A stretch of DNA of 64,000 nucleotides from Escherichia coli (lineage in GTDB: Bacteria; Pseudomonadota; Gammaproteobacteria; Enterobacterales; Enterobacteriaceae): assembly GCF_030013205.1 (NCBI RefSeq), contig NZ_CP122648.1; one strand, given 5' to 3'. The translations under genes were made by a program, and so were the position numbers. Within the stretch, counting starts at the first letter, position 1, and each line of letters starts with the position of its first letter. Shown here piece by piece: positions 1,478 to 60,267 of this stretch. Under the pieces are notes generated by a model that ran no database searches, was not told the DNA's origin, and saw nothing but the letters and a program-made list of their open reading frames with translations.

Positions 1478-2150
1478 GTGCACAGAAAACCCCCAGCTAG
1501 GCTGGGGGTTCCGGAAAGCTTTCAGCTTTGAGCCAGTTATTAAAACCCCTTTTGATTTGTTAAAACACCTTGCGGTCTGGCAACTGCAAGTGTCAAACAA
1601 GAAATCAAAAGGGGGTCCCAATGGGGAACGAAAAGAGCTTAGCGCACACCCGATGGAACTGTAAATATCACATAGTTTTTGCGCCAAAATACCGAAGACA
1701 GGTGTTCTACAGAGAGAAGCGTAGAGCAATAGGCAGTATTTTGAGAAAGCTGTGTGAGTGGAAAAGCGTACGGATTCTGGAAGCTGAATGCTGTGCAGAT
1801 CATATCCATATGCTTGTGGAGATCCCGCCCAAAATGAGCGTATCCGGGTTTATGGGATATCTGAAAGGGAAAAGCAGTCTGATGCTTTACGAGCAGTTTG
1901 GTGATTTGAAATTCAAATACAGGAACAGGGAGTTCTGGTGCAGAGGGTACTACGTCGATACAGTGGGTAAGAACACGGCGAAGATACAGGATTACATAAA
2001 GCACCAGCTTGAAGAGGATAAAATGGGAGAGCAGTTATCGATTCCCTATCCGGGCAGCCCGTTTACGGGCCGTAAGTAACGAAGTTGGATGCAAATGTCA
2101 GATCGTGTGCGCCTGTTAGGGCGCGGCTGGTAAGAGAGCCTTATAGGCGC
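1478..2150 (+). mobile_element. IS200-like insertion sequence (IS200/IS605 family); boundaries approximate
   Basis: carries a 152-aa Y1/HUH transposase ORF; perfect hairpin aaacccccagctaggctgggggtt near the left side; sits between two convergent-gene terminators; exact ends not determinable without a reference. Confidence 0.6.
1621..2079 (+). CDS. tnpA: IS200-type transposase TnpA (HUH/Y1 family)
   Basis: 152 aa from internal ATG of track ORF 1570..2079: MGNEKSLAHTRWNCKYHIVFAPKYRR... with HIH motif (ADHIHMLVEIPP); near-identical to IS200 TnpA as I recall it. Confidence 0.9.
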   Translation: MGNEKSLAHTRWNCKYHIVFAPKYRRQVFYREKRRAIGSILRKLCEWKSVRILEAECCADHIHMLVEIPPKMSVSGFMGYLKGKSSLMLYEQFGDLKFKYRNREFWCRGYYVDTVGKNTAKIQDYIKHQLEEDKMGEQLSIPYPGSPFTGRK

Positions 2151-2202: not shown

Positions 2203-3270
2203 TTAATTGGTTGCCGGATATTCCTGAATGGTGACCTGCAGCGTTAACTGCTTATCATCACGCATCACTACAACCGGGATCACCGAGCCAGGGCGAATTT
2301 CCGCCACCTGATCCATCGTCTCCAGAGCAGAGATGGCCGGTTTGTTATCCACCGAAATAATCAAATCGTTGACCTGAATACCCGCATTCGCCGCCGGGCC
2401 GTCAGGTGACACTTCATTAACCACGATCCCTTGCAGTTGATCTATACCACCGCCCTGCGCGTGCAGTGGTGCGATCTCACGTCCGCCGATACCAATGTAG
2501 CCGCGGATCACGCGACCATCGCGGATCAGCTTATCCATAATTTTGGTTGCTAACTGGAAAGGAATCGCAAAGCCGATGCCTTCCGGCGTTTCGCCATCGT
2601 TACTCTTATCAAACGACAGCGTGTTAATGCCCATCAGTTCGCCCAGCGAGTTCACCAGCGCGCCGCCAGAGTTACCGTGGTTAATGGAAGCATCTGTTTG
2701 CAGGAAGTTTTGCCGCCCGGTCGGGTTCAGACCAATTCGACCCGTGGCACTAATAATCCCCTGGGTAATGGTCTGCCCGAGGTTGTATGGGTTACCGATC
2801 GCCAGTACCACGTCACCAATGTGCGGTACGCGACGTGCATTGATTGGAATGGTAGGTAAACCGCCAGTGGCATTAATTTTAAGTACCGCCAGATCGGTTA
2901 GAGAGTCAGATCCCACCAGCAATGCTTCAAATACACGTCCATCCTGTAAGGCGACGATGATCTGATCGGCGTCGTTGATGACGTGTTTATTGGTGATGAT
3001 ATAACCGCGTTGATCCATGATTACACCGGATCCCAGGGTGCGGATCTCAAGCTGGTTGTGAGAGTTGGTGTTCAAACCACGGTTGTAAACGTTAACCACC
3101 GCTGGCGCGGCGCGGCGAACCGCCAGATTATAGCTGGCAGGCGTCTCATCGGTACTGTCAAATTGCGGAGTGGAAAGCGGGTTAAGGCTGCGCAGCGAAG
3201 GCATGGCAACCAGCAGAATAGCGCCGACAATTAATCCAATCGCAACGGAACGTAAGAGCTTCACAAACAT
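2203..3270 (-). CDS. degS: periplasmic serine endoprotease DegS
   Basis: 355 aa, MFVKLLRSVAIGLIVGAILL..., trypsin-like protease plus PDZ; matches E. coli DegS. Confidence 0.96.
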   Translation of the reverse strand: MFVKLLRSVAIGLIVGAILLVAMPSLRSLNPLSTPQFDSTDETPASYNLAVRRAAPAVVNVYNRGLNTNSHNQLEIRTLGSGVIMDQRGYIITNKHVINDADQIIVALQDGRVFEALLVGSDSLTDLAVLKINATGGLPTIPINARRVPHIGDVVLAIGNPYNLGQTITQGIISATGRIGLNPTGRQNFLQTDASINHGNSGGALVNSLGELMGINTLSFDKSNDGETPEGIGFAIPFQLATKIMDKLIRDGRVIRGYIGIGGREIAPLHAQGGGIDQLQGIVVNEVSPDGPAANAGIQVNDLIISVDNKPAISALETMDQVAEIRPGSVIPVVVMRDDKQLTLQVTIQEYPATN

Positions 3271-3359
3271 GATGGAGGCGTCATTAAAAAAGGGAACGGC
3301 AGCAGCATACCACGAGTTAACCGGACATCACACGTCAGCCTGATGCCCGGTTTACGACA

Positions 3360-4727
3360 TTAACGCATCAGCAGATAGATGCTTTCATTGCCGCGTACAA
3401 TTTGCAGGGCGATGATGGCCGGTTTTGCCGCCAGCACTTTACGCATTTCAGCAATCGAGTTCACCCGATCGCGGTTGACGCCAATGATCACATCGTCTTT
3501 TTGCAAGCCAGCCTGAGCAGCTGGGCTTCCTTTGACAACCTCATCGATCTTAATACCTTTGCCGCCATCTTTTAGCTGACCATCGCTCAACGTTGCACCT
3601 TCAAGCGCTGGCGTGATCATTTCAGCGCTGGCCGACGAAGAGGTGCTGGTATCGAGCGTCACTTCTACTTCCAGTGGTTTGCCGTTACGCAGCAGGCCAA
3701 GCTTCACTTTCGTGCCCGGCTCGGTGGTTGCGATACGAGAGCGCAACTCAGCAAAGCTATTCAGCGGTTTGCCGTTGAGGCTGGTAATAATATCGCCCGC
3801 TTTGACGCCCGCTTTTGCCGAGCCAGAACCTGGCAACACTTCGCTGACAAACGCGCCACGCTGCACGTCAAGGTTGAAGGCTTTGGCGATATCGGCACTC
3901 ATCTCGGTGCCTTTGATGCCTAACAAACCGCGTTTGATTTCACCAAAGTCGATAAGCTGCTGCGCCAGTGTTCGCGCCATATTACTGGGGATGGCAAATC
4001 CAATCCCGACGCTCCCGCCGCCAGGCGCAAGGATTGCAGTGTTGATGCCAATTAACTCACCGTTAAGGTTTAACAGTGCACCGCCGGAGTTACCGCGGTT
4101 AATGGAAGCATCTGTCTGGATAAAGTTTTCCAGACCTTCAAGATTCAACCCACTGCGGCCTAATGCGGAAACAATGCCAGAGGTGGCGGTTTGCCCAAGG
4201 CCAAATGGGTTACCGACCGCCACGGCAAAATCACCGACGCGCAATTTATCGGAGTCGGCAATAGCGATTTGCGTTAATTTGCTCGGGTTTTGAATTTGCA
4301 ACAGGGCGATATCGCTCTGGTCATCGCTACCAATCAGTTTTGCATCAAACTCGCGCCCATCATTGAGCTGAATACTGATTTTCTGTGCCTGATTAATCAC
4401 ATGGTTGTTAGTCAGCACATAGCCTTTACTGGCGTTGATGATGACACCGGAGCCTAAACCTTCGAAGGGTTGTGCCGGTTGATCCGGTAAATCATCACCA
4501 AAAAACTTTTTGAATTCTTCCGGGATTTTCTGTCCCTGACTGGCCGTTCCTTCCACCCGTACGCTCACCACTGCCGGAAGCACTTTTTCCAGCATTGGGG
4601 CCAGACTGGGGAGGGGGGCCTGATCGGCAACCTGGCCTGGAATCGACGCGACGGCCTGAAATGACGCCGAGAGAGTTAACCCGACACTTAACGCTAATGC
4701 ACTCAACAGCTGGGTTTGTTTTTTCAT
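3360..4727 (-). CDS. degQ: periplasmic serine endoprotease DegQ
   Basis: 455 aa from MKKQTQLLSALALSVGL (track ORF has upstream extension); protease plus two PDZ domains. Confidence 0.95.
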   Translation of the reverse strand: MKKQTQLLSALALSVGLTLSASFQAVASIPGQVADQAPLPSLAPMLEKVLPAVVSVRVEGTASQGQKIPEEFKKFFGDDLPDQPAQPFEGLGSGVIINASKGYVLTNNHVINQAQKISIQLNDGREFDAKLIGSDDQSDIALLQIQNPSKLTQIAIADSDKLRVGDFAVAVGNPFGLGQTATSGIVSALGRSGLNLEGLENFIQTDASINRGNSGGALLNLNGELIGINTAILAPGGGSVGIGFAIPSNMARTLAQQLIDFGEIKRGLLGIKGTEMSADIAKAFNLDVQRGAFVSEVLPGSGSAKAGVKAGDIITSLNGKPLNSFAELRSRIATTEPGTKVKLGLLRNGKPLEVEVTLDTSTSSSASAEMITPALEGATLSDGQLKDGGKGIKIDEVVKGSPAAQAGLQKDDVIIGVNRDRVNSIAEMRKVLAAKPAIIALQIVRGNESIYLLMR

Positions 4728-4880
4728 TATTCCTGCTCTCGTACCTGAATGATAAGAAAAGAGATTCAAAACAGTTTGATGTTATTGAATTTTCAGACGG
4801 CTAACAATGAGACACCAGATTAAATGATAGTCGGGGAGGGAGAGAAGAGGAGGGCGCAATGGCTGCGCCCGAAAAATAAA

Positions 4881-5279
4881 TTAGTCGCGCTTCGCGCCAG
4901 TACGCAGCAGGCCGGACGCGCCTTCAGAATAGTCGCGAGGCATCTGCACCGGTGCCTGATCGTTGCTGGCTTCAGACTCTGCCAGACGATTACGGAACGG
5001 GTTTGCTTCAGCAGACAGTTCCGGCAGCAGGCTGCTGGAGCTTTTCGCCATGTGCTGATACAGCTGGCGATAGTCGTGCGCCATGGTATCCAGTAATTCC
5101 GCGCTGCGGGCAAAGTGGCTAACCAGCTCTTCGCGATACTCGTCCAGTTCAGCTTTATTCTTTTCCAGTTCGTACTGCAACGCCTGTTGCTGGCGTAGTT
5201 TACGATTACCAAAACGCATGGCCACAGCACCAATAATGATGCCGACGACTAACCCAATTAGCGCATATTCCCAGGTCAT
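4881..5279 (-). CDS. zapG: inner-membrane cell-division associated protein ZapG/YhcB
   Basis: 132 aa from MTWEYALIGLVVGIIIGAV; N-terminal TM helix then coiled coil; matches YhcB. Confidence 0.92.
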   Translation of the reverse strand: MTWEYALIGLVVGIIIGAVAMRFGNRKLRQQQALQYELEKNKAELDEYREELVSHFARSAELLDTMAHDYRQLYQHMAKSSSSLLPELSAEANPFRNRLAESEASNDQAPVQMPRDYSEGASGLLRTGAKRD

Positions 5280-51347: not shown

Positions 51348-53282
51348 ATGGCGAAAAACCTAATACTCTGGCTGGTCATTGCCGTTGTGCTGATGTCAGT
51401 ATTCCAGAGCTTTGGGCCCAGCGAGTCTAATGGCCGTAAGGTGGATTACTCTACCTTCCTACAAGAGGTCAATAACGACCAGGTTCGTGAAGCGCGTATC
51501 AACGGACGTGAAATCAACGTTACCAAGAAAGATAGTAACCGTTATACCACTTACATTCCGGTTCAGGATCCGAAATTACTGGATAACCTGTTGACCAAGA
51601 ACGTCAAGGTTGTCGGTGAACCGCCTGAAGAACCAAGCCTGCTGGCTTCTATCTTCATCTCCTGGTTCCCGATGCTGTTGCTGATTGGTGTCTGGATCTT
51701 CTTCATGCGTCAAATGCAGGGCGGCGGTGGCAAAGGTGCCATGTCGTTTGGTAAGAGCAAAGCGCGCATGCTGACGGAAGATCAGATCAAAACGACCTTT
51801 GCTGACGTTGCGGGCTGCGACGAAGCAAAAGAAGAAGTTGCTGAACTGGTTGAGTATCTGCGCGAGCCGAGCCGCTTCCAGAAACTCGGCGGTAAGATCC
51901 CGAAAGGCGTCCTGATGGTCGGTCCTCCGGGTACCGGTAAAACGCTGCTGGCGAAAGCGATTGCAGGCGAAGCGAAAGTTCCGTTCTTTACTATCTCCGG
52001 TTCTGACTTCGTCGAAATGTTCGTCGGTGTGGGTGCATCCCGTGTTCGTGACATGTTCGAACAGGCGAAGAAAGCGGCACCGTGTATCATCTTTATCGAT
52101 GAAATCGACGCCGTAGGCCGCCAGCGTGGCGCAGGCCTGGGCGGTGGTCACGATGAACGTGAACAGACTCTGAACCAGATGCTGGTTGAGATGGATGGCT
52201 TCGAAGGTAACGAAGGTATCATCGTTATCGCCGCGACTAACCGTCCGGACGTTCTCGACCCGGCGCTGCTGCGTCCTGGCCGTTTCGACCGTCAGGTTGT
52301 GGTTGGTTTGCCAGATGTTCGCGGTCGTGAGCAGATCCTGAAAGTTCACATGCGTCGCGTACCATTGGCACCCGATATCGACGCGGCAATCATTGCCCGT
52401 GGTACTCCTGGTTTCTCCGGTGCTGACCTGGCGAACCTGGTGAACGAAGCGGCACTGTTCGCTGCTCGTGGCAACAAACGCGTTGTGTCGATGGTTGAAT
52501 TCGAGAAAGCGAAAGACAAAATCATGATGGGTGCGGAACGTCGCTCCATGGTGATGACGGAAGCGCAGAAAGAATCGACGGCTTACCACGAAGCGGGTCA
52601 CGCGATTATCGGTCGCCTGGTGCCGGAACACGATCCGGTGCACAAAGTGACGATTATCCCACGCGGTCGTGCGCTGGGTGTGACTTTCTTCTTGCCTGAG
52701 GGCGACGCAATCAGCGCCAGCCGTCAGAAACTGGAAAGCCAGATTTCTACGCTGTACGGTGGTCGTCTGGCAGAAGAGATCATCTACGGGCCGGAACATG
52801 TTTCTACCGGTGCGTCCAACGATATTAAAGTTGCGACCAACCTGGCACGTAACATGGTGACTCAGTGGGGCTTCTCTGAGAAATTGGGTCCACTGCTGTA
52901 CGCGGAAGAAGAAGGTGAAGTGTTCCTCGGCCGTAGCGTAGCGAAAGCGAAACATATGTCTGATGAAACTGCACGTATCATCGACCAGGAAGTGAAAGCA
53001 CTGATTGAGCGTAACTATAATCGTGCGCGTCAGCTTCTGACCGACAATATGGATATTCTGCATGCGATGAAAGATGCTCTCATGAAATATGAGACTATCG
53101 ACGCACCGCAGATTGATGACCTGATGGCACGTCGCGATGTACGTCCGCCAGCGGGCTGGGAAGAACCAGGCGCTTCTAACAATTCTGGCGACAATGGTAG
53201 TCCAAAGGCTCCACGTCCGGTTGATGAACCGCGTACGCCGAACCCGGGTAACACCATGTCAGAGCAGTTAGGCGACAAGTAA
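51348..53282 (+). CDS. ftsH: ATP-dependent zinc metalloprotease FtsH
   Basis: 644 aa from [20 protein letters not shown] (ATG three codons inside the TTG-initiated track ORF); Walker A GPPGTGKT and HEAGH zinc motif. Confidence 0.96.
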
Positions 53283-53313
53283 GTTCCCGCATCAGATGAC
53301 TGTATTTGTACCG

Positions 53314-53346
53314 AAAACCCCGGGGCGTGCTCCGGGGTTTTTTCTT
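53314..53346 (+). terminator. hairpin terminator/attenuator between ftsH and folP
   Basis: aaaaccccggggcgtgctccggggttttttctt. Confidence 0.65.
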
Positions 53347-53371
53347 ATCAATTCATACCAGGGATAACACC

Positions 53372-54220
53372 ATGAAACTCTTTGCCCAGGGCACTTCACT
53401 GGACCTTAGCCATCCTCACGTAATGGGGATCCTCAACGTCACGCCTGATTCCTTTTCGGATGGCGGCACGCATAACTCGCTGATAGATGCGGTGAAACAT
53501 GCGAATCTGATGATCAACGCTGGCGCGACGATCATTGACGTTGGTGGCGAGTCCACGCGCCCAGGAGCGGCGGAAGTTAGCGTTGAAGAAGAGTTGCAAC
53601 GTGTTATTCCTGTGGTTGAGGCAATTGCTCAACGCTTCGAAGTCTGGATCTCGGTCGATACATCCAAACCAGAAGTCATCCGTGAGTCAGCGAAAGTTGG
53701 CGCTCACATTATTAACGATATCCGCTCCCTTTCCGAACCAGGGGCTCTGGAGGCAGCTGCAGAAACCGGTTTACCGGTTTGTCTGATGCATATGCAGGGA
53801 AATCCAAAGACCATGCAGGAAGCCCCGAAGTATGACGATGTCTTTGCAGAAGTGAATCGCTATTTTATTGAGCAAATAGCACGTTGCGAGCAGGCGGGTA
53901 TCGCAAAAGAGAAATTGTTGCTCGACCCCGGATTCGGTTTCGGTAAAAATCTCTCCCATAACTATTCATTACTGGCGCGCCTGGCTGAATTTCACCATTT
54001 CAACCTGCCGCTGTTGGTGGGTATGTCACGAAAATCGATGATTGGGCAGCTGCTGAACGTGGGGCCGTCCGAGCGTCTGAGCGGTAGTCTGGCTTGTGCG
54101 GTCATTGCCGCTATGCAAGGCGCGCATATCATTCGTGTTCATGACGTCAAAGAAACCGTAGAAGCGATGCGGGTGGTGGAAGCCACTCTGTCTGCAAAGG
54201 AAAACAAACGCTATGAGTAA
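53372..54220 (+). CDS. folP: dihydropteroate synthase
   Basis: 282 aa from [32 protein letters not shown] (internal ATG). Confidence 0.96.
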
Positions 54221-55550
54221 TCGTAAATATTTCGGTACCGATGGGATTCGTGGTCGTGTAGGGGATGCGCCGATCACCCCTGATTTTGTGCTTAAGCTGG
54301 GTTGGGCCGCGGGTAAAGTGCTGGCGCGCCACGGCTCCCGTAAGATCATTATTGGTAAAGATACGCGTATTTCTGGCTATATGCTGGAGTCAGCACTGGA
54401 AGCGGGTCTGGCGGCTGCCGGTCTTTCCGCGCTCTTCACTGGCCCGATGCCAACACCGGCCGTGGCTTATCTGACGCGGACTTTCCGCGCAGAGGCTGGG
54501 ATTGTGATATCTGCATCGCATAACCCGTTCTACGATAATGGCATTAAATTTTTCTCTATCGACGGCACCAAACTGCCGGATGCAGTTGAAGAGGCCATCG
54601 AAGCGGAAATGGAAAAAGAGATCAGCTGCGTTGATTCGGCAGAACTGGGTAAAGCCAGCCGTATCGTTGATGCTGCGGGTCGCTATATCGAGTTTTGCAA
54701 AGCCACGTTCCCGAACGAACTTAGCCTCAGTGAACTGAAGATTGTGGTGGATTGTGCAAACGGTGCGACTTATCACATCGCGCCGAACGTGCTGCGTGAA
54801 CTGGGGGCGAACGTTATCGCTATCGGTTGTGAGCCGAACGGTGTAAACATCAATGCCGAAGTGGGGGCTACCGACGTTCGCGCTCTCCAGGCTCGTGTGC
54901 TGGCTGAAAAAGCGGATCTCGGTATTGCCTTCGACGGCGACGGCGATCGCGTGATTATGGTTGACCATGAAGGCAATAAAGTCGATGGCGATCAGATCAT
55001 GTATATCATCGCGCGTGAAGGTCTTCGTCAGGGCCAGCTGCGTGGTGGCGCTGTGGGTACATTGATGAGCAACATGGGGCTTGAACTGGCGCTGAAACAG
55101 TTAGGAATTCCATTTGCGCGTGCGAAAGTGGGTGACCGCTACGTACTGGAAAAAATGCAGGAGAAAGGCTGGCGTATCGGTGCAGAGAATTCCGGTCATG
55201 TGATCCTGCTGGATAAAACCACTACCGGTGACGGCATCGTTGCTGGCTTGCAGGTGCTGGCGGCGATGGCGCGTAACCATATGAGCCTGCACGATCTTTG
55301 CAGCGGCATGAAAATGTTCCCGCAGATTCTTGTTAACGTGCGTTACACCGCAGGTAGCGGCGATCCGCTGGAGCATGAATCAGTCAAAGCTGTGACCGCA
55401 GAAGTTGAAGCGGCGCTGGGTAGCCGTGGACGTGTGCTGTTGCGTAAATCCGGCACCGAACCGTTAATTCGCGTGATGGTGGAAGGTGAAGACGAAGCGC
55501 AGGTGACTGAATTTGCACACCGCATCGCTGATGCAGTAAAAGCCGTTTAA
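54213..55550 (+). CDS. glmM: phosphoglucosamine mutase
   Basis: 445 aa [18 protein letters not shown]...; active-site SASHNP; overlaps the folP 3' end by 8 nt. Confidence 0.97.
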
Positions 55551-55777
55551 AGCGTTATATAGCTGGCTAAAAAGGCGGCGATTGTCGCCTTTTTTCTCAG
55601 CGAACACATCGGTTTTGCTGTTTTTTTCCGCAGTTGATACAATGCGATAAAATTGCCCTTGCGAAGGTCATTCGCTTTGGTTAGTATTCACACCCGCTTC
55701 AGTGGGAAAGATTAAAAATTCCCGCTTTATTGGTTGAAGCATTGGTACGCGGCAACTCCGCAAGGAACAGGTTGATT

Positions 55778-56110
55778 ATGTACGAAGCTCTTTTAGTAGT
55801 TTTCCTTATTGTGGCAATTGGCCTTGTTGGTCTGATCATGCTGCAGCAAGGTAAAGGCGCTGATATGGGAGCCTCCTTCGGAGCAGGCGCTTCCGCTACG
55901 CTGTTTGGTTCAAGTGGTTCTGGTAACTTCATGACCCGCATGACGGCGCTGCTGGCAACGTTATTCTTCATCATCAGTCTGGTGCTGGGTAACATCAATA
56001 GCAATAAAACCAATAAAGGTAGCGAATGGGAAAACCTGAGTGCGCCGGCGAAAACCGAACAAACTCAGCCAGCTGCTCCGGCTAAGCCGACCAGCGATAT
56101 CCCGAACTAA
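55778..56110 (+). CDS. secG: protein translocase subunit SecG
   Basis: 110 aa from MYEALLVVFLIVAIGLVGLIMLQQGKGADMG (internal ATG). Confidence 0.96.
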   Translation: MYEALLVVFLIVAIGLVGLIMLQQGKGADMGASFGAGASATLFGSSGSGNFMTRMTALLATLFFIISLVLGNINSNKTNKGSEWENLSAPAKTEQTQPAAPAKPTSDIPN

Positions 56111-56124
56111 AAAGTAGTATCCGT

Positions 56125-56211
56125 GCCGAGGTGGTGGAATTGGTAGACACGCTACCTTGAGGTGGTAGTGCCCAATAGGGCTTACGGGTTCAAGTCCCGT
56201 CCTCGGTACCA
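56125..56211 (+). tRNA. leuU: tRNA-Leu (anticodon GAG)
   Basis: 87-nt gccgaggtggtggaattggtagacacgctaccttgaggtggtagtgcccaatagggcttacgggttcaagtcccgtcctcggtacca; long variable arm, anticodon loop cttGAGgt, 3' CCA encoded. Confidence 0.93.
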
Positions 56212-56217
56212 AATTCC

Positions 56218-56248
56218 AGAAAAGAGACGCTGAAAAGCGTCTTTTTTC
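56218..56248 (+). terminator. intrinsic terminator after secG-leuU
   Basis: agagacgctgaaaagcgtcttttttcg hairpin plus U-run. Confidence 0.7.
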
Positions 56249-56667
56249 GTTTTGGTCCTGGTCTGAGGAATGGTTGTCAGGTATCTGTATCTCGTCCAGT
56301 TGCTTTACTCGTAGCTGGTACTTTGAAACGATGGTATCGGTACGCCTTAGTTATAAACTTTTCCCTTCTGCTGACATAATTGGCACTTTATTGTGTCAAC
56401 TCCAGTTCCGGTACGAATACGGATATGTTTACTTCTCGATAAACCATCCTGCTCCTGTCAGTATAACTACTGATGGCTACGTTCTGCGTAATGTTTAGAG
56501 ACGCATTGATAATGTTATTTAATTACTGAGAACAATGGCCGCATCATTTAAAAAGAAAAAACTAACAGTGTTTCGGTCTGATATGGATCAGAGTTGAAAA
56601 ACATGTCTGATATAAAATTGAACATTGTTGATAATTGTTTATATTGGTTGTGAACTTGGATTTCTGG

Positions 56668-58293
56668 ATGACAGTATTCAACAAATTTGTTAGAAGTTTT
56701 AAATCTCATTGGTTGTTGTATCTTTGTGTTATTGTTTTTGGTATTACGAACTTAGTCGCCTCTTCCGGAGCGCATATGGTTCAGCGATTGCTGTTCTTCG
56801 TTCTGACCATCCTGGTTGTTAAACGTATATCATCCCTTTCGCTTCGCCTGCTTGTTGCCGCACCATTTGTGTTACTGACAGCGGCAGACATGAGTATTAG
56901 CCTCTATTCATGGTGTACCTTTGGTACAACTTTCAATGATGGATTTGCGATTAGCGTGCTGCAGAGTGATCCGGATGAAGTTGTCAAAATGCTGGGGATG
57001 TATATCCCTTATCTATGTGCTTTTGCCTTTTTATCCCTTCTTTTTTTTGCAGTAATAATAAAATATGATGTTTCCTTGCCGACGAAAAAAGTGACAGGAA
57101 TATTATTGCTGATTGTCATTTCGGGCAGTTTATTTTCCGCTTGTCAATTTGCTTATAAAGATGCAAAAAATAAAAAAGCGTTCAGTCCATATATACTAGC
57201 GTCGCGATTTGCTACCTATACACCGTTTTTCAATCTCAATTATTTTGCTTTAGCAGCGAAAGAGCATCAAAGATTACTCTCAATTGCAAACACGGTGCCG
57301 TATTTTCAATTATCAGTCAGGGATACAGGTATTGATACCTACGTGTTGATTGTGGGGGAGTCTGTACGTGTCGACAATATGTCTTTGTATGGATATACAC
57401 GCTCTACGACACCGCAAGTCGAAGCACAAAGAAAACAGATCAAACTGTTTAATCAAGCAATAAGCGGTGCACCTTACACTGCGCTGTCGGTTCCCCTTTC
57501 TTTAACTGCTGATTCTGTTTTGAGTCATGACATTCATAATTACCCGGACAACATTATTAATATGGCTAATCAAGCAGGATTTCAGACTTTCTGGCTAAGC
57601 TCGCAATCCGCTTTTCGGCAGAATGGTACAGCAGTTACCAGTATCGCCATGCGCGCCATGGAAACAGTCTATGTCAGAGGATTTGATGAATTGTTGTTGC
57701 CGCATTTATCGCAAGCGTTAAAGCAAAAGACGCAGCAAAAGAAACTGATTGTTCTTCATTTAAATGGAAGCCATGAACCGGCTTGTAGCGCCTATCCGCA
57801 ATCCAGCGCCGTGTTTCAACCGCAGGACGATCAGGATGCCTGCTATGACAACTCCATTCATTACACAGATAGTTTGCTAGGTCAGATTTTTGAATTATTA
57901 AAAGATCGCCGCGCCTCGGTCATGTATTTTGCCGACCACGGCCTGGAACGTGACCCTACGAAGAAGAACGTCTATTTTCATGGAGGCAGGGAGGCTAGCC
58001 AGCAGGCATATCATGTCCCGATGTTTATCTGGTATAGCCCCGTTCTTGGGGATGGCGTGGATCGCACAACGGAAAACAACATCTTTTCCACAGCTTACAA
58101 TAATTACCTGATTAATGCGTGGATGGGGGTAACAAAGCCGGAACAACCGAAAACGCTGGAGGAAGTGATTGCACACTATAAAGGAGACTCACGGGTTGTG
58201 GATGCAAACCATGATGTTTTCGATTATGTGATGCTCAGAAAGGAGTTTACAGAGGATAAGCAAGGTAACCCCACCCCTGAAGGGCAGGGTTGA
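56668..58293 (+). CDS. yhbX: putative phosphoethanolamine transferase (EptA-like sulfatase-family membrane protein) YhbX
   Basis: 541 aa from MTVFNKFVRSFKSHWLLYLCV (internal ATG); N-terminal TM segments, C-terminal sulfatase-like domain; visibly AT-rich compared with neighbours. Confidence 0.85.
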   Translation: MTVFNKFVRSFKSHWLLYLCVIVFGITNLVASSGAHMVQRLLFFVLTILVVKRISSLSLRLLVAAPFVLLTAADMSISLYSWCTFGTTFNDGFAISVLQSDPDEVVKMLGMYIPYLCAFAFLSLLFFAVIIKYDVSLPTKKVTGILLLIVISGSLFSACQFAYKDAKNKKAFSPYILASRFATYTPFFNLNYFALAAKEHQRLLSIANTVPYFQLSVRDTGIDTYVLIVGESVRVDNMSLYGYTRSTTPQVEAQRKQIKLFNQAISGAPYTALSVPLSLTADSVLSHDIHNYPDNIINMANQAGFQTFWLSSQSAFRQNGTAVTSIAMRAMETVYVRGFDELLLPHLSQALKQKTQQKKLIVLHLNGSHEPACSAYPQSSAVFQPQDDQDACYDNSIHYTDSLLGQIFELLKDRRASVMYFADHGLERDPTKKNVYFHGGREASQQAYHVPMFIWYSPVLGDGVDRTTENNIFSTAYNNYLINAWMGVTKPEQPKTLEEVIAHYKGDSRVVDANHDVFDYVMLRKEFTEDKQGNPTPEGQG

Positions 58294-58300
58294 TGTCGAA

Positions 58301-59659
<1,359 letters not shown>

Positions 59660-59695
59660 TTAATTAACTGATGATGAGCCTGGATTTCCGCTCTC

Positions 59696-59732
59696 ACTGA
59701 ATTTTTATGCAAAATAAATGAGTTTTCATTTA
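59696..59732 (-). promoter_or_regulatory. candidate tandem ARG boxes (ArgR operator) in the argG promoter
   Basis: actgaatttttatgcaaa and taaatgagttttcatttaa, two adjacent AT-rich near-palindromes resembling the TNTGAAT-W4-ATTCANW consensus, 50-90 bp upstream of argG. Confidence 0.55.
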
Positions 59733-59879
59733 ATCATCTTTTATCGGAGACAGGAAGAGTTTAGTGTGTTTTTTGTAAAATAATGCGCTTAAGGGAGAGC
59801 AGGAGAAGGCAAAAGTATTCAACAAATGAAAGTGAACTGGATATTCATTCACGTGATTAGCAATAAACGTTGACAAAAT

Positions 59880-59976
59880 GTGGCATGGATCACTATAATG
59901 CCTGCAGATTTTACGTCCCGTCTCGGTACACCAAATCCCAGCAGTATTTGCATTTTTTACCCAAAACGAGTAGAAT
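59880..59976 (+). promoter_or_regulatory. tandem sigma-70 promoters of the metY-rimP-nusA-infB operon
   Basis: TTGACA-18 bp-TATAAT at about 59880-59909, and TTGCAT-17 bp-TAGAAT at about 59948-59976 ending about 15 nt before the tRNA. Confidence 0.6.
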
Positions 59977-59991
59977 TTGCCACGTTTCAGG

Positions 59992-60068
<77 letters not shown>

Positions 60069-60182
60069 CTTTAGTCCTTTTTCAAATATACTGTGAAGAC
60101 TTCGGCCTTCGTAGTGGGATTTGAAAAAATCCTTCTGGAAAGTGCTCCAGACCGCAGTTGCGGTTATAGGGTTCAGTTATAT

Positions 60183-60210
60183 AAAGCCCCGATTTATCGG
60201 GGTTTTTTGT
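60183..60210 (+). terminator. intrinsic terminator/attenuator after metY
   Basis: aaagccccgatttatcggggttttttg. Confidence 0.7.
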
Positions 60211-60267
60211 TATCTGACTACAGAATAACTGGGCTTTAGGCCCTTTTTTTATGTCTTGGGGGTGGGC

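Follow-up and report, generated by a model that had tools for sequence, protein, structure and literature searches.

Between leuU and argG on the Escherichia coli chromosome lies yhbX, an AT-rich gene whose position next to a tRNA gene was taken by the initial annotation as the classic signature of an old horizontal acquisition. We wondered where this gene came from, whether the neighbouring tRNA gene had any part in its arrival, and what it encodes. Our analysis of the 64,000-nucleotide stretch of DNA that contains it (hereafter the window), and of the corresponding slot in other genomes, indicates that very probably a foreign single-gene cassette (56254-58307) replaced an XRE-family gene here, and that it encodes an inner-membrane enzyme with the catalytic set of a phosphoethanolamine (PEtN) transferase.

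Layout and base composition of the leuU-argG interval

The arrangement of genes is as first described, with yhbX adjoining tRNA-Leu. Upstream, secG (55778-56110, plus strand) precedes leuU, a tRNA-Leu(GAG) gene on the same strand (56125-56211; called by ARAGORN and scored at 52.8 bits by the Rfam tRNA model); a 456-bp spacer (56212-56667) then leads to yhbX (56668-58293, plus strand), which encodes 541 amino acids from the start given in the RefSeq annotation, and argG (58301-59644, minus strand) converges on it in both the list of open reading frames (ORFs) and the annotation. The 87-nt leuU sequence is identical in Salmonella, Citrobacter, Edwardsiella and Hafnia, and forms the conserved left flank, outside the acquired DNA; argG is the conserved right flank. 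A terminator scan located the intrinsic terminator of secG-leuU at 56219-56253, on both strands, and conserved sequence stops at 56253. This terminator is identical in the two E. coli alleles of the slot described below, and closely similar in Salmonella and Citrobacter amalonaticus spacers.

That yhbX is AT-rich relative to its neighbours, as had been noted by eye, is borne out by calculation. Its GC content (0.429) and its GC content at third codon positions (GC3; 0.426) are both the lowest among the 52 genes in the window; the remaining genes have a mean GC of 0.525 (s.d. 0.024, minimum 0.464), placing yhbX at z = -4.1 for GC and -3.2 for GC3. The lowest-GC stretch of the window falls here at both scales used, at 1,000 bp (56347-57346, GC 0.374, against a next distinct minimum of 0.436 and a window mean of 0.515) and at 2,000 bp (56269-58268, GC 0.414; next 0.466). 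Within the gene, GC is 0.39 in the 5′ 700 nt, which encode the membrane domain, and 0.459 in the remainder; the run TTTTTTTTGCAGTAATAATAAAATATGATG that the initial annotation quoted lies at 57041-57070, inside yhbX.

The roughly 450 bp after leuU had also been called AT-rich, and they are (GC 0.379 across 56212-56667, falling to 0.308 in 56499-56667, and given as 0.365-0.308 for 56254-56667), but the value is within the range of the window's other intergenic regions (0.33-0.57); only the yhbX coding sequence truly stands out. Codon adaptation separates the gene less clearly than GC does: the Sharp-Li codon adaptation index (CAI) of yhbX, 0.221, is the lowest of the 52 genes yet no clear outlier, with four others close to it at 0.226-0.237.

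Occupants of the slot and origin of the cassette

Presence of yhbX varies within and beyond E. coli. At a coverage of at least 80% it is found in 5,165 of 5,426 complete E. coli genomes, about 95%, while 237 of the 5,426 (4.4%) have at the leuU-argG slot an unrelated gene for a 317-aa XRE-family helix-turn-helix (HTH) protein; both alleles still segregate in the species. E. marmotae, Salmonella enterica and Citrobacter koseri have the same HTH gene at this position, and over 3,013 bp the HTH allele of E. coli aligns collinearly with Salmonella at 79.5%. Elsewhere the slot is empty: leuU and argG are only 180-212 bp apart in Salmonella diarizonae, C. amalonaticus S646 and Citrobacter sp. MGH106, whose three spacers hold the leuU and argG terminators, together with a REP-like repeat in S. 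diarizonae and C. amalonaticus S646. Salmonella, Citrobacter and E. marmotae all lack yhbX at the syntenic position, and this comparison, which the initial annotation had proposed, identifies it as a lineage-specific acquisition. The outgroups came from an exact leuU pattern search that yielded only 16 loci, several of them ending just past the tRNA gene. Within Escherichia the comparison covered E. coli and E. marmotae, which dates the gain only loosely in the genus.

The XRE-family gene is itself AT-rich (GC 0.375-0.40) and is found at 52-73% identity across many Proteobacteria; PADLOC gave only HTH-level matches for it. Because it is AT-rich and only 71-73% identical between genera, it could conceivably have targeted the slot repeatedly and independently. 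The locus shares with pan-genome hotspots of E. coli its conserved flanks (secG-leuU and argG) and contents that vary by strain and genus; it differs from them in that both E. coli alleles are single AT-rich genes and in that the exchange reached into a core gene at its 3′ end.

Comparison of the two E. coli alleles places the left breakpoint at 56253/56254, just past the leuU terminator and 42 bp beyond the tRNA, and the right breakpoint within the last two argG codons, at about 58307, giving a cassette of 2.05 kb. The right junction (58294-58307) comprises the 7-bp gap between the convergent stops and the argG stop codon with its last two codons. ArgG accordingly ends in NKGQ in the yhbX allele and in NKVK in the E. 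coli HTH allele; the three empty-slot outgroups have NNAK or (S/N)KAK, and the HTH-carrying Salmonella and C. koseri have NKGK and NKSK. The hairpin terminator of argG is kept in the HTH allele and in the spacers of Salmonella and of C. amalonaticus and MGH106 but is absent from the yhbX allele, where the terminator scan found no minus-strand terminator between the argG stop and 56242. Since relatives carry the HTH gene or an empty spacer, we read yhbX as a derived replacement that removed the argG terminator. On the lineage leading to most E. coli, the cassette would have displaced the 317-aa XRE-family gene between leuU and argG, taken out the argG terminator and rewritten the last two argG codons, presumably through illegitimate or flank-guided recombination in a slot that has been repeatedly remodelled in Enterobacteriaceae. 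yhbX is an ordinary gene gain and no new kind of element, and current understanding of horizontal transfer is unchanged by it.

Outside its own cluster, YhbX has few close relatives. Among 1.84 billion representative proteins nothing outside the cluster (9,957 members) exceeds 50% identity, bar one paralog at 64%; the relatives that follow reach 48% at most and lie in unrelated contexts, and the named cluster members examined were all E. coli or a multispecies Enterobacteriaceae entry. The paralog, on plasmid pRHB40-C01_2, is 64% identical in amino acids over 96% of the length; its DNA (GC 0.437) matches yhbX at 68% in the coding region only, the upstream regions being unrelated. Chromosomal copies of the paralog occur in 445 of 5,426 E. 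coli genomes (8%), against 95% for yhbX; both genes are AT-rich. The one context examined, in strain XH989, is a large pheV island next to tRNA-Phe, where the paralog keeps company with a tyrosine integrase, a type I restriction-modification system and IS elements, whereas yhbX at leuU stands alone without mobility genes. In a word-indexed homolog search, near-identical sequences from E. coli filled the results and hid any wider distribution; a contig scan with YhbX peptide patterns gave no confirmed relative, and no donor of yhbX was identified.

Two sequences that looked like divergent orthologs were rejected. The first (P0158/L033; 74% identical on a 159-aa fragment and 69% by tblastn over the full gene) we take as a chemically converted or error-laden read set because it is 82% collinear with the window at a GC of 0.32 and with an ArgG of only 64%. 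The second (P0129/L032; 83-85% identical) was set aside as a lone 1.5-kb read-assembly contig without flanking context.

The company kept by the paralog bears on a different origin for yhbX, namely that an integrase-bearing element put it site-specifically into the leuU 3′ end and then decayed to its cargo gene. The cassette starts close to the tRNA gene and has the atypical composition and variable presence of a genomic island; besides the pheV island of XH989, YhbX/YjgX-like genes have been noted in pheU, pheV and selC islands (PMC6174562), and differing cargo lies 3′ of leuU in C. amalonaticus ku-bf3 (MFS and enolase genes) and in Intestinirhabdus (a fimbrial operon). The cassette, however, contains no integrase gene or remnant, only yhbX and short spurious ORFs; no direct repeats flank it, and the search for copies of the leuU 3′ end that the initial annotation had suggested returned a single occurrence of its 25 nt in the 64-kb window, even at three mismatches. 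Its left boundary lies past the terminator and not in the tRNA gene, its right boundary cuts into the coding sequence of argG, and the exchange removed an older resident gene, all of which fits replacement and not site-specific insertion; we regard the decayed element as decidedly unlikely. leuU is merely a neighbour, its terminator having set the left boundary, with no attachment site. What stands of the initial reading is the acquisition of a lineage-specific gene of atypical composition; the tRNA signature falls away, there being no integrase and no repeats and the right boundary lying inside argG, and an AT-rich gene beside a tRNA gene does not alone imply integrase-mediated insertion.

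We also asked about the AT-rich, non-coding 5′ part of the replacement cassette (56254-56667, plus strand), presumably the promoter and leader region of yhbX, whose left limit is the end of homology to the alternative allele. It could have a function in its own right, through either a small protein encoded by a 74-codon ORF with a TTG start (56274-56498, plus strand) or a regulatory RNA or leader acting on yhbX. All seven E. coli strains compared keep the ORF intact, a GAGG motif lies 5 nt upstream of its start, and the spacer has been kept together with yhbX as one cassette. Its pN/pS (0.46), however, resembles that of an out-of-frame control (0.41), 8 of its 13 segregating sites are amino-acid-changing, and its nucleotide diversity (0.023) is as high as that of neutral flanks; it has no NCBIfam or PHROG match and no annotation in RefSeq records, and by a rough base-composition estimate chance alone would yield about half an ORF this long in 450 bp of such composition. 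Rfam returned no match for 56254-56667 at E ≤ 1, the region upstream of the 64% paralog is unrelated, and a 65-aa ORF there, considered as a possible homolog, shows no homology on comparison. We judge the ORF to be non-coding, in agreement with the earlier remark that it lacks recognisable features, and a functional element in the spacer seems very unlikely. Weak sigma-70-like sites occur at 56607-56645 and are not enriched (6, against 5.3 expected from shuffles); an in vitro RNAP-sigma SELEX site has been reported in the yhbX-leuU spacer (PMC5493296).

Already disfavoured, and highly improbable, is the notion that yhbX is old and vertically inherited, its low GC stemming from membrane-protein amino-acid composition and weak expression and its absence from Salmonella, Citrobacter and E. 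marmotae from loss: carriage by 95% of E. coli, purifying selection, a CAI at the end of but not beyond the range of other weakly expressed genes, and an AT-richest part that coincides with the transmembrane domain would suit it, but GC3, which is independent of amino-acid content, is also the window's lowest, the slot in four other lineages holds a different and mutually collinear gene, the argG terminator of outgroup spacers and the HTH allele is missing from the yhbX allele, and no ortholog of 50-98% identity is found outside the E. coli cluster except the plasmid and pheV-island paralog.

Fold, active site and family of YhbX

To ask what the replacement brought in, we turned to the protein. 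YhbX has five N-terminal transmembrane helices (approximately amino acids 14-162, from hydrophobic segments and from helices in the AF2 model) followed by a periplasmic sulfatase-fold domain (amino acids 224-467, at 57337-58068; Pfam Sulfatase, PF00884, E = 6.1e-56). The AF2 model (pLDDT 91.8) matches NmEptA (5FGN) and MCR-1 (9NWW) over the full length, and Foldseek aligned it with the catalytic domains of EptC, EptA and MCR-1 at TM scores of 0.69-0.77. The periplasmic domain has a zinc-dependent alkaline-phosphatase fold with the full PEtN-transferase catalytic set. Across 33 subfamily members, residues E231, T271, H369, D423 and H424 do not vary and H438 is conserved in at least 90%; the six align with E240, T280, H383, D452, H453 and H465 of NmEptA. 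YhbX would most likely move phosphoethanolamine from phosphatidylethanolamine onto an envelope acceptor.

The family to which YhbX belongs, EptA/EptB/EptC/OpgE/MCR, was formerly called the 'YhbX/YhjW/YijP/YjdB family'. The initial description of the gene as EptA-like holds for fold and family, but YhbX scores below the curated NCBIfam cut-offs, in alignments that begin at amino acids 18-43: 157 against 500 for the generic PEtN-lipid A transferase, 143 against 404 for CptA, 124 against 561 and 94 against 660 for EptA, 104 against 493 for EptB, and at most 71 against at least 1075 for MCR. The Pfam profile for the membrane domain, EptA_B_N (PF08019), does not match, and besides Sulfatase only a chance-level DUF2585 hit was returned. 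NmEptA and MCR-1, both lipid A PEtN transferases, align with YhbX over about 550 columns that include the five transmembrane helices and the sulfatase-fold domain, yet at only 18-20% identity. Among solved structures its best sequence match is instead E. coli EptC (CptA/YijP; 5ZZU, 6A82), the PEtN transferase that modifies heptose I in the LPS core (87.5 bits, ~23% identity; catalytic domain TM 0.77, rmsd 3.4). The two have in common the Glu/Thr/Asp/His catalytic set and a membrane anchor joined to a periplasmic domain, although YhbX remains well under the CptA subfamily cut-off. Nothing in our results points to lipid A modification or polymyxin resistance through YhbX, and PADLOC assigned it to no defence system.

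Selection on yhbX is purifying (pN/pS 0.15) and about ten times more relaxed than on its neighbours. Of the five PEtN-transferase paralogs in E. coli K-12, yhbX is to our knowledge the last that lacks an assigned substrate. It has been described as having no established function (PMC4013655), and our literature search found no later paper assigning it a PEtN acceptor. That yhbX is accessory and acquired and keeps an intact active site under selection suggests a niche-specific envelope modification over a core function.

Transcription across the locus

The AT content of the locus (GC 0.374 over 56347-57346, against the window mean of 0.515) is well above average, as expected of xenogeneic DNA, and from it we would predict that yhbX is probably expressed at a low level and possibly repressed by H-NS. 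Sites resembling the high-affinity H-NS motif are not enriched (4 in the cassette, with as many or more in 27% of equal-sized windows), A/T-tract counts are likewise uninformative on H-NS, and the literature and supplements of genome-wide H-NS studies yielded no record of H-NS binding at yhbX. A literature search for b3173 returned only a GalR site list.

With the argG terminator lost, read-through from argG enters yhbX antisense, and overlapping transcription has indeed been reported, argG-yhbX forming a convergent excludon in MG1655 RNA-seq (PMC12288877). We infer from this arrangement that the overlap may have a regulatory effect. More speculatively, leuU-argG may be a long-lived two-allele locus at which selection keeps both alleles, with YhbX decorating an envelope acceptor and loss of the argG terminator wiring yhbX. 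We think this rather unlikely; if it were so, the ancestral XRE-family gene and the acquired yhbX would be mutually exclusive through selection and not drift, antisense read-through would tie yhbX expression inversely to arginine biosynthesis, and the acceptor of YhbX would be an as yet unrecognised envelope component.

The argG-yhbX and leuU-yhbX spacers also serve as neutral insertion sites in strain engineering, and for users of these sites it is relevant that the argG terminator is missing here, so that transcription overlaps.

A compositional outlier beside leuU

Over positions 56100-58400 the window matches strain CFSAN018748 at 100% identity and K-12 MG1655 at 98.2%. Gene order runs glmM (54213-55550), secG (55778-56110), leuU encoding tRNA-Leu(GAG) (56125-56211), yhbX (56668-58293) and argG (58301-59644), the last on the strand opposite to yhbX; beyond argG lie metY, the rimP leader (60150-60250; RF01770, 102 bits), which sits downstream of metY as expected for the operon, rimP and nusA.

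The initial annotation had described both yhbX and its upstream region as AT-rich; the observation holds, but the 456-bp leuU–yhbX spacer, at GC 0.379, is ordinary for intergenic DNA in the window. The GC (0.429) and GC3 (0.426) of yhbX are both the lowest among the 52 window genes, at z = -4.1 and -3.2, respectively; the other genes have a mean GC of 0.525 (s.d. 0.024, minimum 0.464). Sliding windows placed the minima of the entire 64 kb at the yhbX locus, with GC of 0.374 over 1 kb (56347-57346; next minimum 0.436) and 0.414 over 2 kb (56269-58268; next minimum 0.466), and the T-rich run quoted earlier is present at 57041-57070. The refuting condition named at the outset, values within the range of neighbouring genes, therefore fails on GC, and codon usage is a weakly informative test: its CAI of 0.221 is the lowest, with four other genes at 0.226-0.237. 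The second-lowest GC in the ORF list (0.46) belongs to a 152-aa ORF at 1621-2079 (+) starting MGNEKSLAHTRWNCKYHIVFAPKYRRQVFY, which we take to resemble an IS200/IS605-type transposase.

Two alleles of the leuU–argG slot

The occurrence of yhbX here is best read as the replacement of one cassette by another in a slot prone to recombination, the interval between leuU and argG. Counted at 80% coverage or more, yhbX occurs in 5,165 of 5,426 complete E. coli genomes; 237 carry at its position a different, 1.2-kb cassette, and 24 fall in neither count. The alternative cassette holds a 317-aa gene on the strand opposite to yhbX, with an XRE-type helix-turn-helix (HTH) at the N-terminus of its product. 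Alignment of the two alleles put the left breakpoint at 56253/56254, directly 3' of the T-run of the secG–leuU terminator, and the right breakpoint within the last two argG codons; ArgG ends in ..NKGQ with yhbX and in ..NKVK with the HTH gene. The last two residues of ArgG (GQ versus VK; window 58294-58307) thus depend on the slot allele, meaning that a core enzyme bears the scar of a cassette exchange. In an HTH-allele strain, argG is otherwise of the usual E. coli type, with additional differences confined to the 224 bp next to the junction. What is modestly new here is the slot with its two alleles and the scar left in argG.

Horizontal acquisition of yhbX, as first proposed, is well supported by its outlying GC and by the different gene in the slot of relatives. 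The mechanism suggested with it, a tRNA-adjacent island, is not supported: the cassette contains no integrase, a search around it found no flanking repeats, and the leuU 3' end has no second copy in the 64-kb window even with three mismatches allowed.

Read most simply, the HTH gene was the earlier occupant of the slot, and yhbX took its place and that of the argG 3' end in the E. coli lineage. Counterparts of the HTH gene, 71-73% identical in entries named Salmonella enterica and C. koseri and 89% in one named E. marmotae, lie between argG and secG in all three, and the E. coli HTH allele aligns to Salmonella as a single collinear block from secG through argG (79.5% over 3,013 bp). We located the gene at 2687-3640 in E. 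coli G3X16-2 (L002) and at 4001-4960 / 3501-4454 in three further loci (L037, L039 and L041). Its 317-319-aa product, in which the XRE-type HTH occupies the first ~45 residues ahead of an uncharacterised remainder of ~270 aa, is 52-73% identical across distant Proteobacteria (Salmonella, Photorhabdus, Pseudomonas, Acinetobacter, Massilia and Oryzomonas, by source name), and had no defence-system match beyond the HTH itself. Across seven E. coli strains, yhbX has less synonymous diversity (pS 0.051) than argG or glmM (0.086); on this small sample, the yhbX allele might postdate the species-wide coalescent of its flanks.

A search for exact matches to leuU gave 16 loci from other Enterobacterales. 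Only 180-212 bp separate leuU from argG in Salmonella diarizonae, Citrobacter amalonaticus S646 and Citrobacter sp. MGH106, a spacer containing the leuU terminator, the argG hairpin terminator and, in the first two, a REP-like repeat. MFS and enolase-family genes lie downstream of leuU in C. amalonaticus ku-bf3, and a fimbrial operon in Intestinirhabdus. The rimP region directly follows leuU in Edwardsiella, Hafnia and Tenebrionibacter; there and in one Enterobacteriaceae MAG (L010, L014, L018, L020, L021 and L023), rimP is found ~360-380 bp after leuU and argG is absent from the position, so the placement of argG between leuU and the rimP region seems particular to the Escherichia, Salmonella and Citrobacter group. 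This conserved gene row also varies at a second point, the glmM–secG spacer, which measures 227 bp in E. coli and holds an insertion of ~3.9 kb in Shimwellia (L012, 6762-10667) and Citrobacter sp. MGH106 (L025, 4736-8616).

The spacer and transcription of yhbX

The 74-aa ORF in the spacer, initially judged to have no recognisable features, matched no family and is absent from the annotation; it is open in all seven E. coli strains compared, but eight of its 13 variable sites change an amino acid, and its pN/pS of 0.46 is at the level of an out-of-frame control (0.41). No Rfam family matched the spacer at E<=1, and promoter-like sites, at 56607-56645, occur no more often than in shuffled sequence. 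Where it deals with heat-shock sigma promoters, a genomic SELEX study lists a site for RNA polymerase holoenzyme in the yhbX–leuU spacer (PMC5493296). Going by AT content, the gene may be silenced by H-NS; H-NS motif-like sites were not enriched in the yhbX cassette.

The stop codons of yhbX and argG are 7 bp apart, and the argG terminator, kept in the HTH allele, is absent from the yhbX allele; we found no minus-strand terminator-like site between the argG stop and 56242. This loss fits independent RNA-seq work on MG1655, in which argG–yhbX is listed as a convergent pair with overlapping transcription (PMC12288877).

YhbX and its relatives on islands

As read from sequence, yhbX is a known, annotated gene for a putative phosphoethanolamine-transferase paralog, and an ordinary finding. 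Pfam assigned a Sulfatase domain to residues 224-467 (E = 6e-56) and no EptA_B_N match; among NCBIfam models, residues 18-485 align to EptA, EptB, CptA and MCR, always far below curated cut-offs. Ahead of the catalytic domain are five hydrophobic segments. Among solved structures, E. coli EptC and Neisseria EptA are the closest in sequence, and the EptA zinc ligands and threonine nucleophile have counterparts in E231, T271, H369, D423, H424 and H438, which vary little or not at all among 33 subfamily members. An AlphaFold2 model (pLDDT 91.8, pTM 0.90) matches NmEptA and MCR-1 at full length and EptC over the catalytic domain. Across the seven strains, the pN/pS of 0.15 (0.10 in the catalytic domain) indicates purifying selection roughly ten times more relaxed than in argG (0.012) or glmM (0.028). 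The literature gives YhbX no established function (PMC4013655), and knock-outs have given scattered phenotypes that only hint at envelope effects (PMC4551910; PMC9765716).

Among 1.84 billion representative proteins clustered at 50% identity, the E. coli YhbX cluster stands alone; every named member that we read is E. coli, apart from a multispecies Enterobacteriaceae entry. Full-length sequences come next at 41-46% identity, with 48% for a partial sequence of 429 aa, and those distant relatives that were traced sit in unrelated gene contexts. A closer paralog, 64% identical, is carried on the 62-kb record pRHB40-C01_2 (L035, 438-2099) and is chromosomal in 445 of the 5,426 E. coli genomes; its homology to yhbX is confined to the coding region, and a 65-aa hydrophobic ORF lies upstream of it. 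In the one chromosomal context examined, strain XH989 (L036, 12339-14012), the paralog is in a pheV island adjoining tRNA-Phe, together with a tyrosine integrase, a type I restriction-modification system and IS1; an internally deleted copy adjoins an integrase in strain CNR20180903 (L031, 1987-2668). A published survey reports 'YjgX or YhbX' phosphoethanolamine transferases on each of the pheU, pheV and selC islands of STEC (PMC6174562). The YhbX subfamily therefore does travel on classical islands, although the copy at leuU shows none of their machinery.

One apparent distant ortholog was rejected: L033, a contig from SRR3359616, is collinear with window 52670-60000 at 82%, but its GC is 0.32 and even its ArgG shares just 64% identity. 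The contig resembles an assembly of reads that were chemically converted or full of errors, rather than a divergent species, and such records can mimic 'distant orthologs' in protein libraries.
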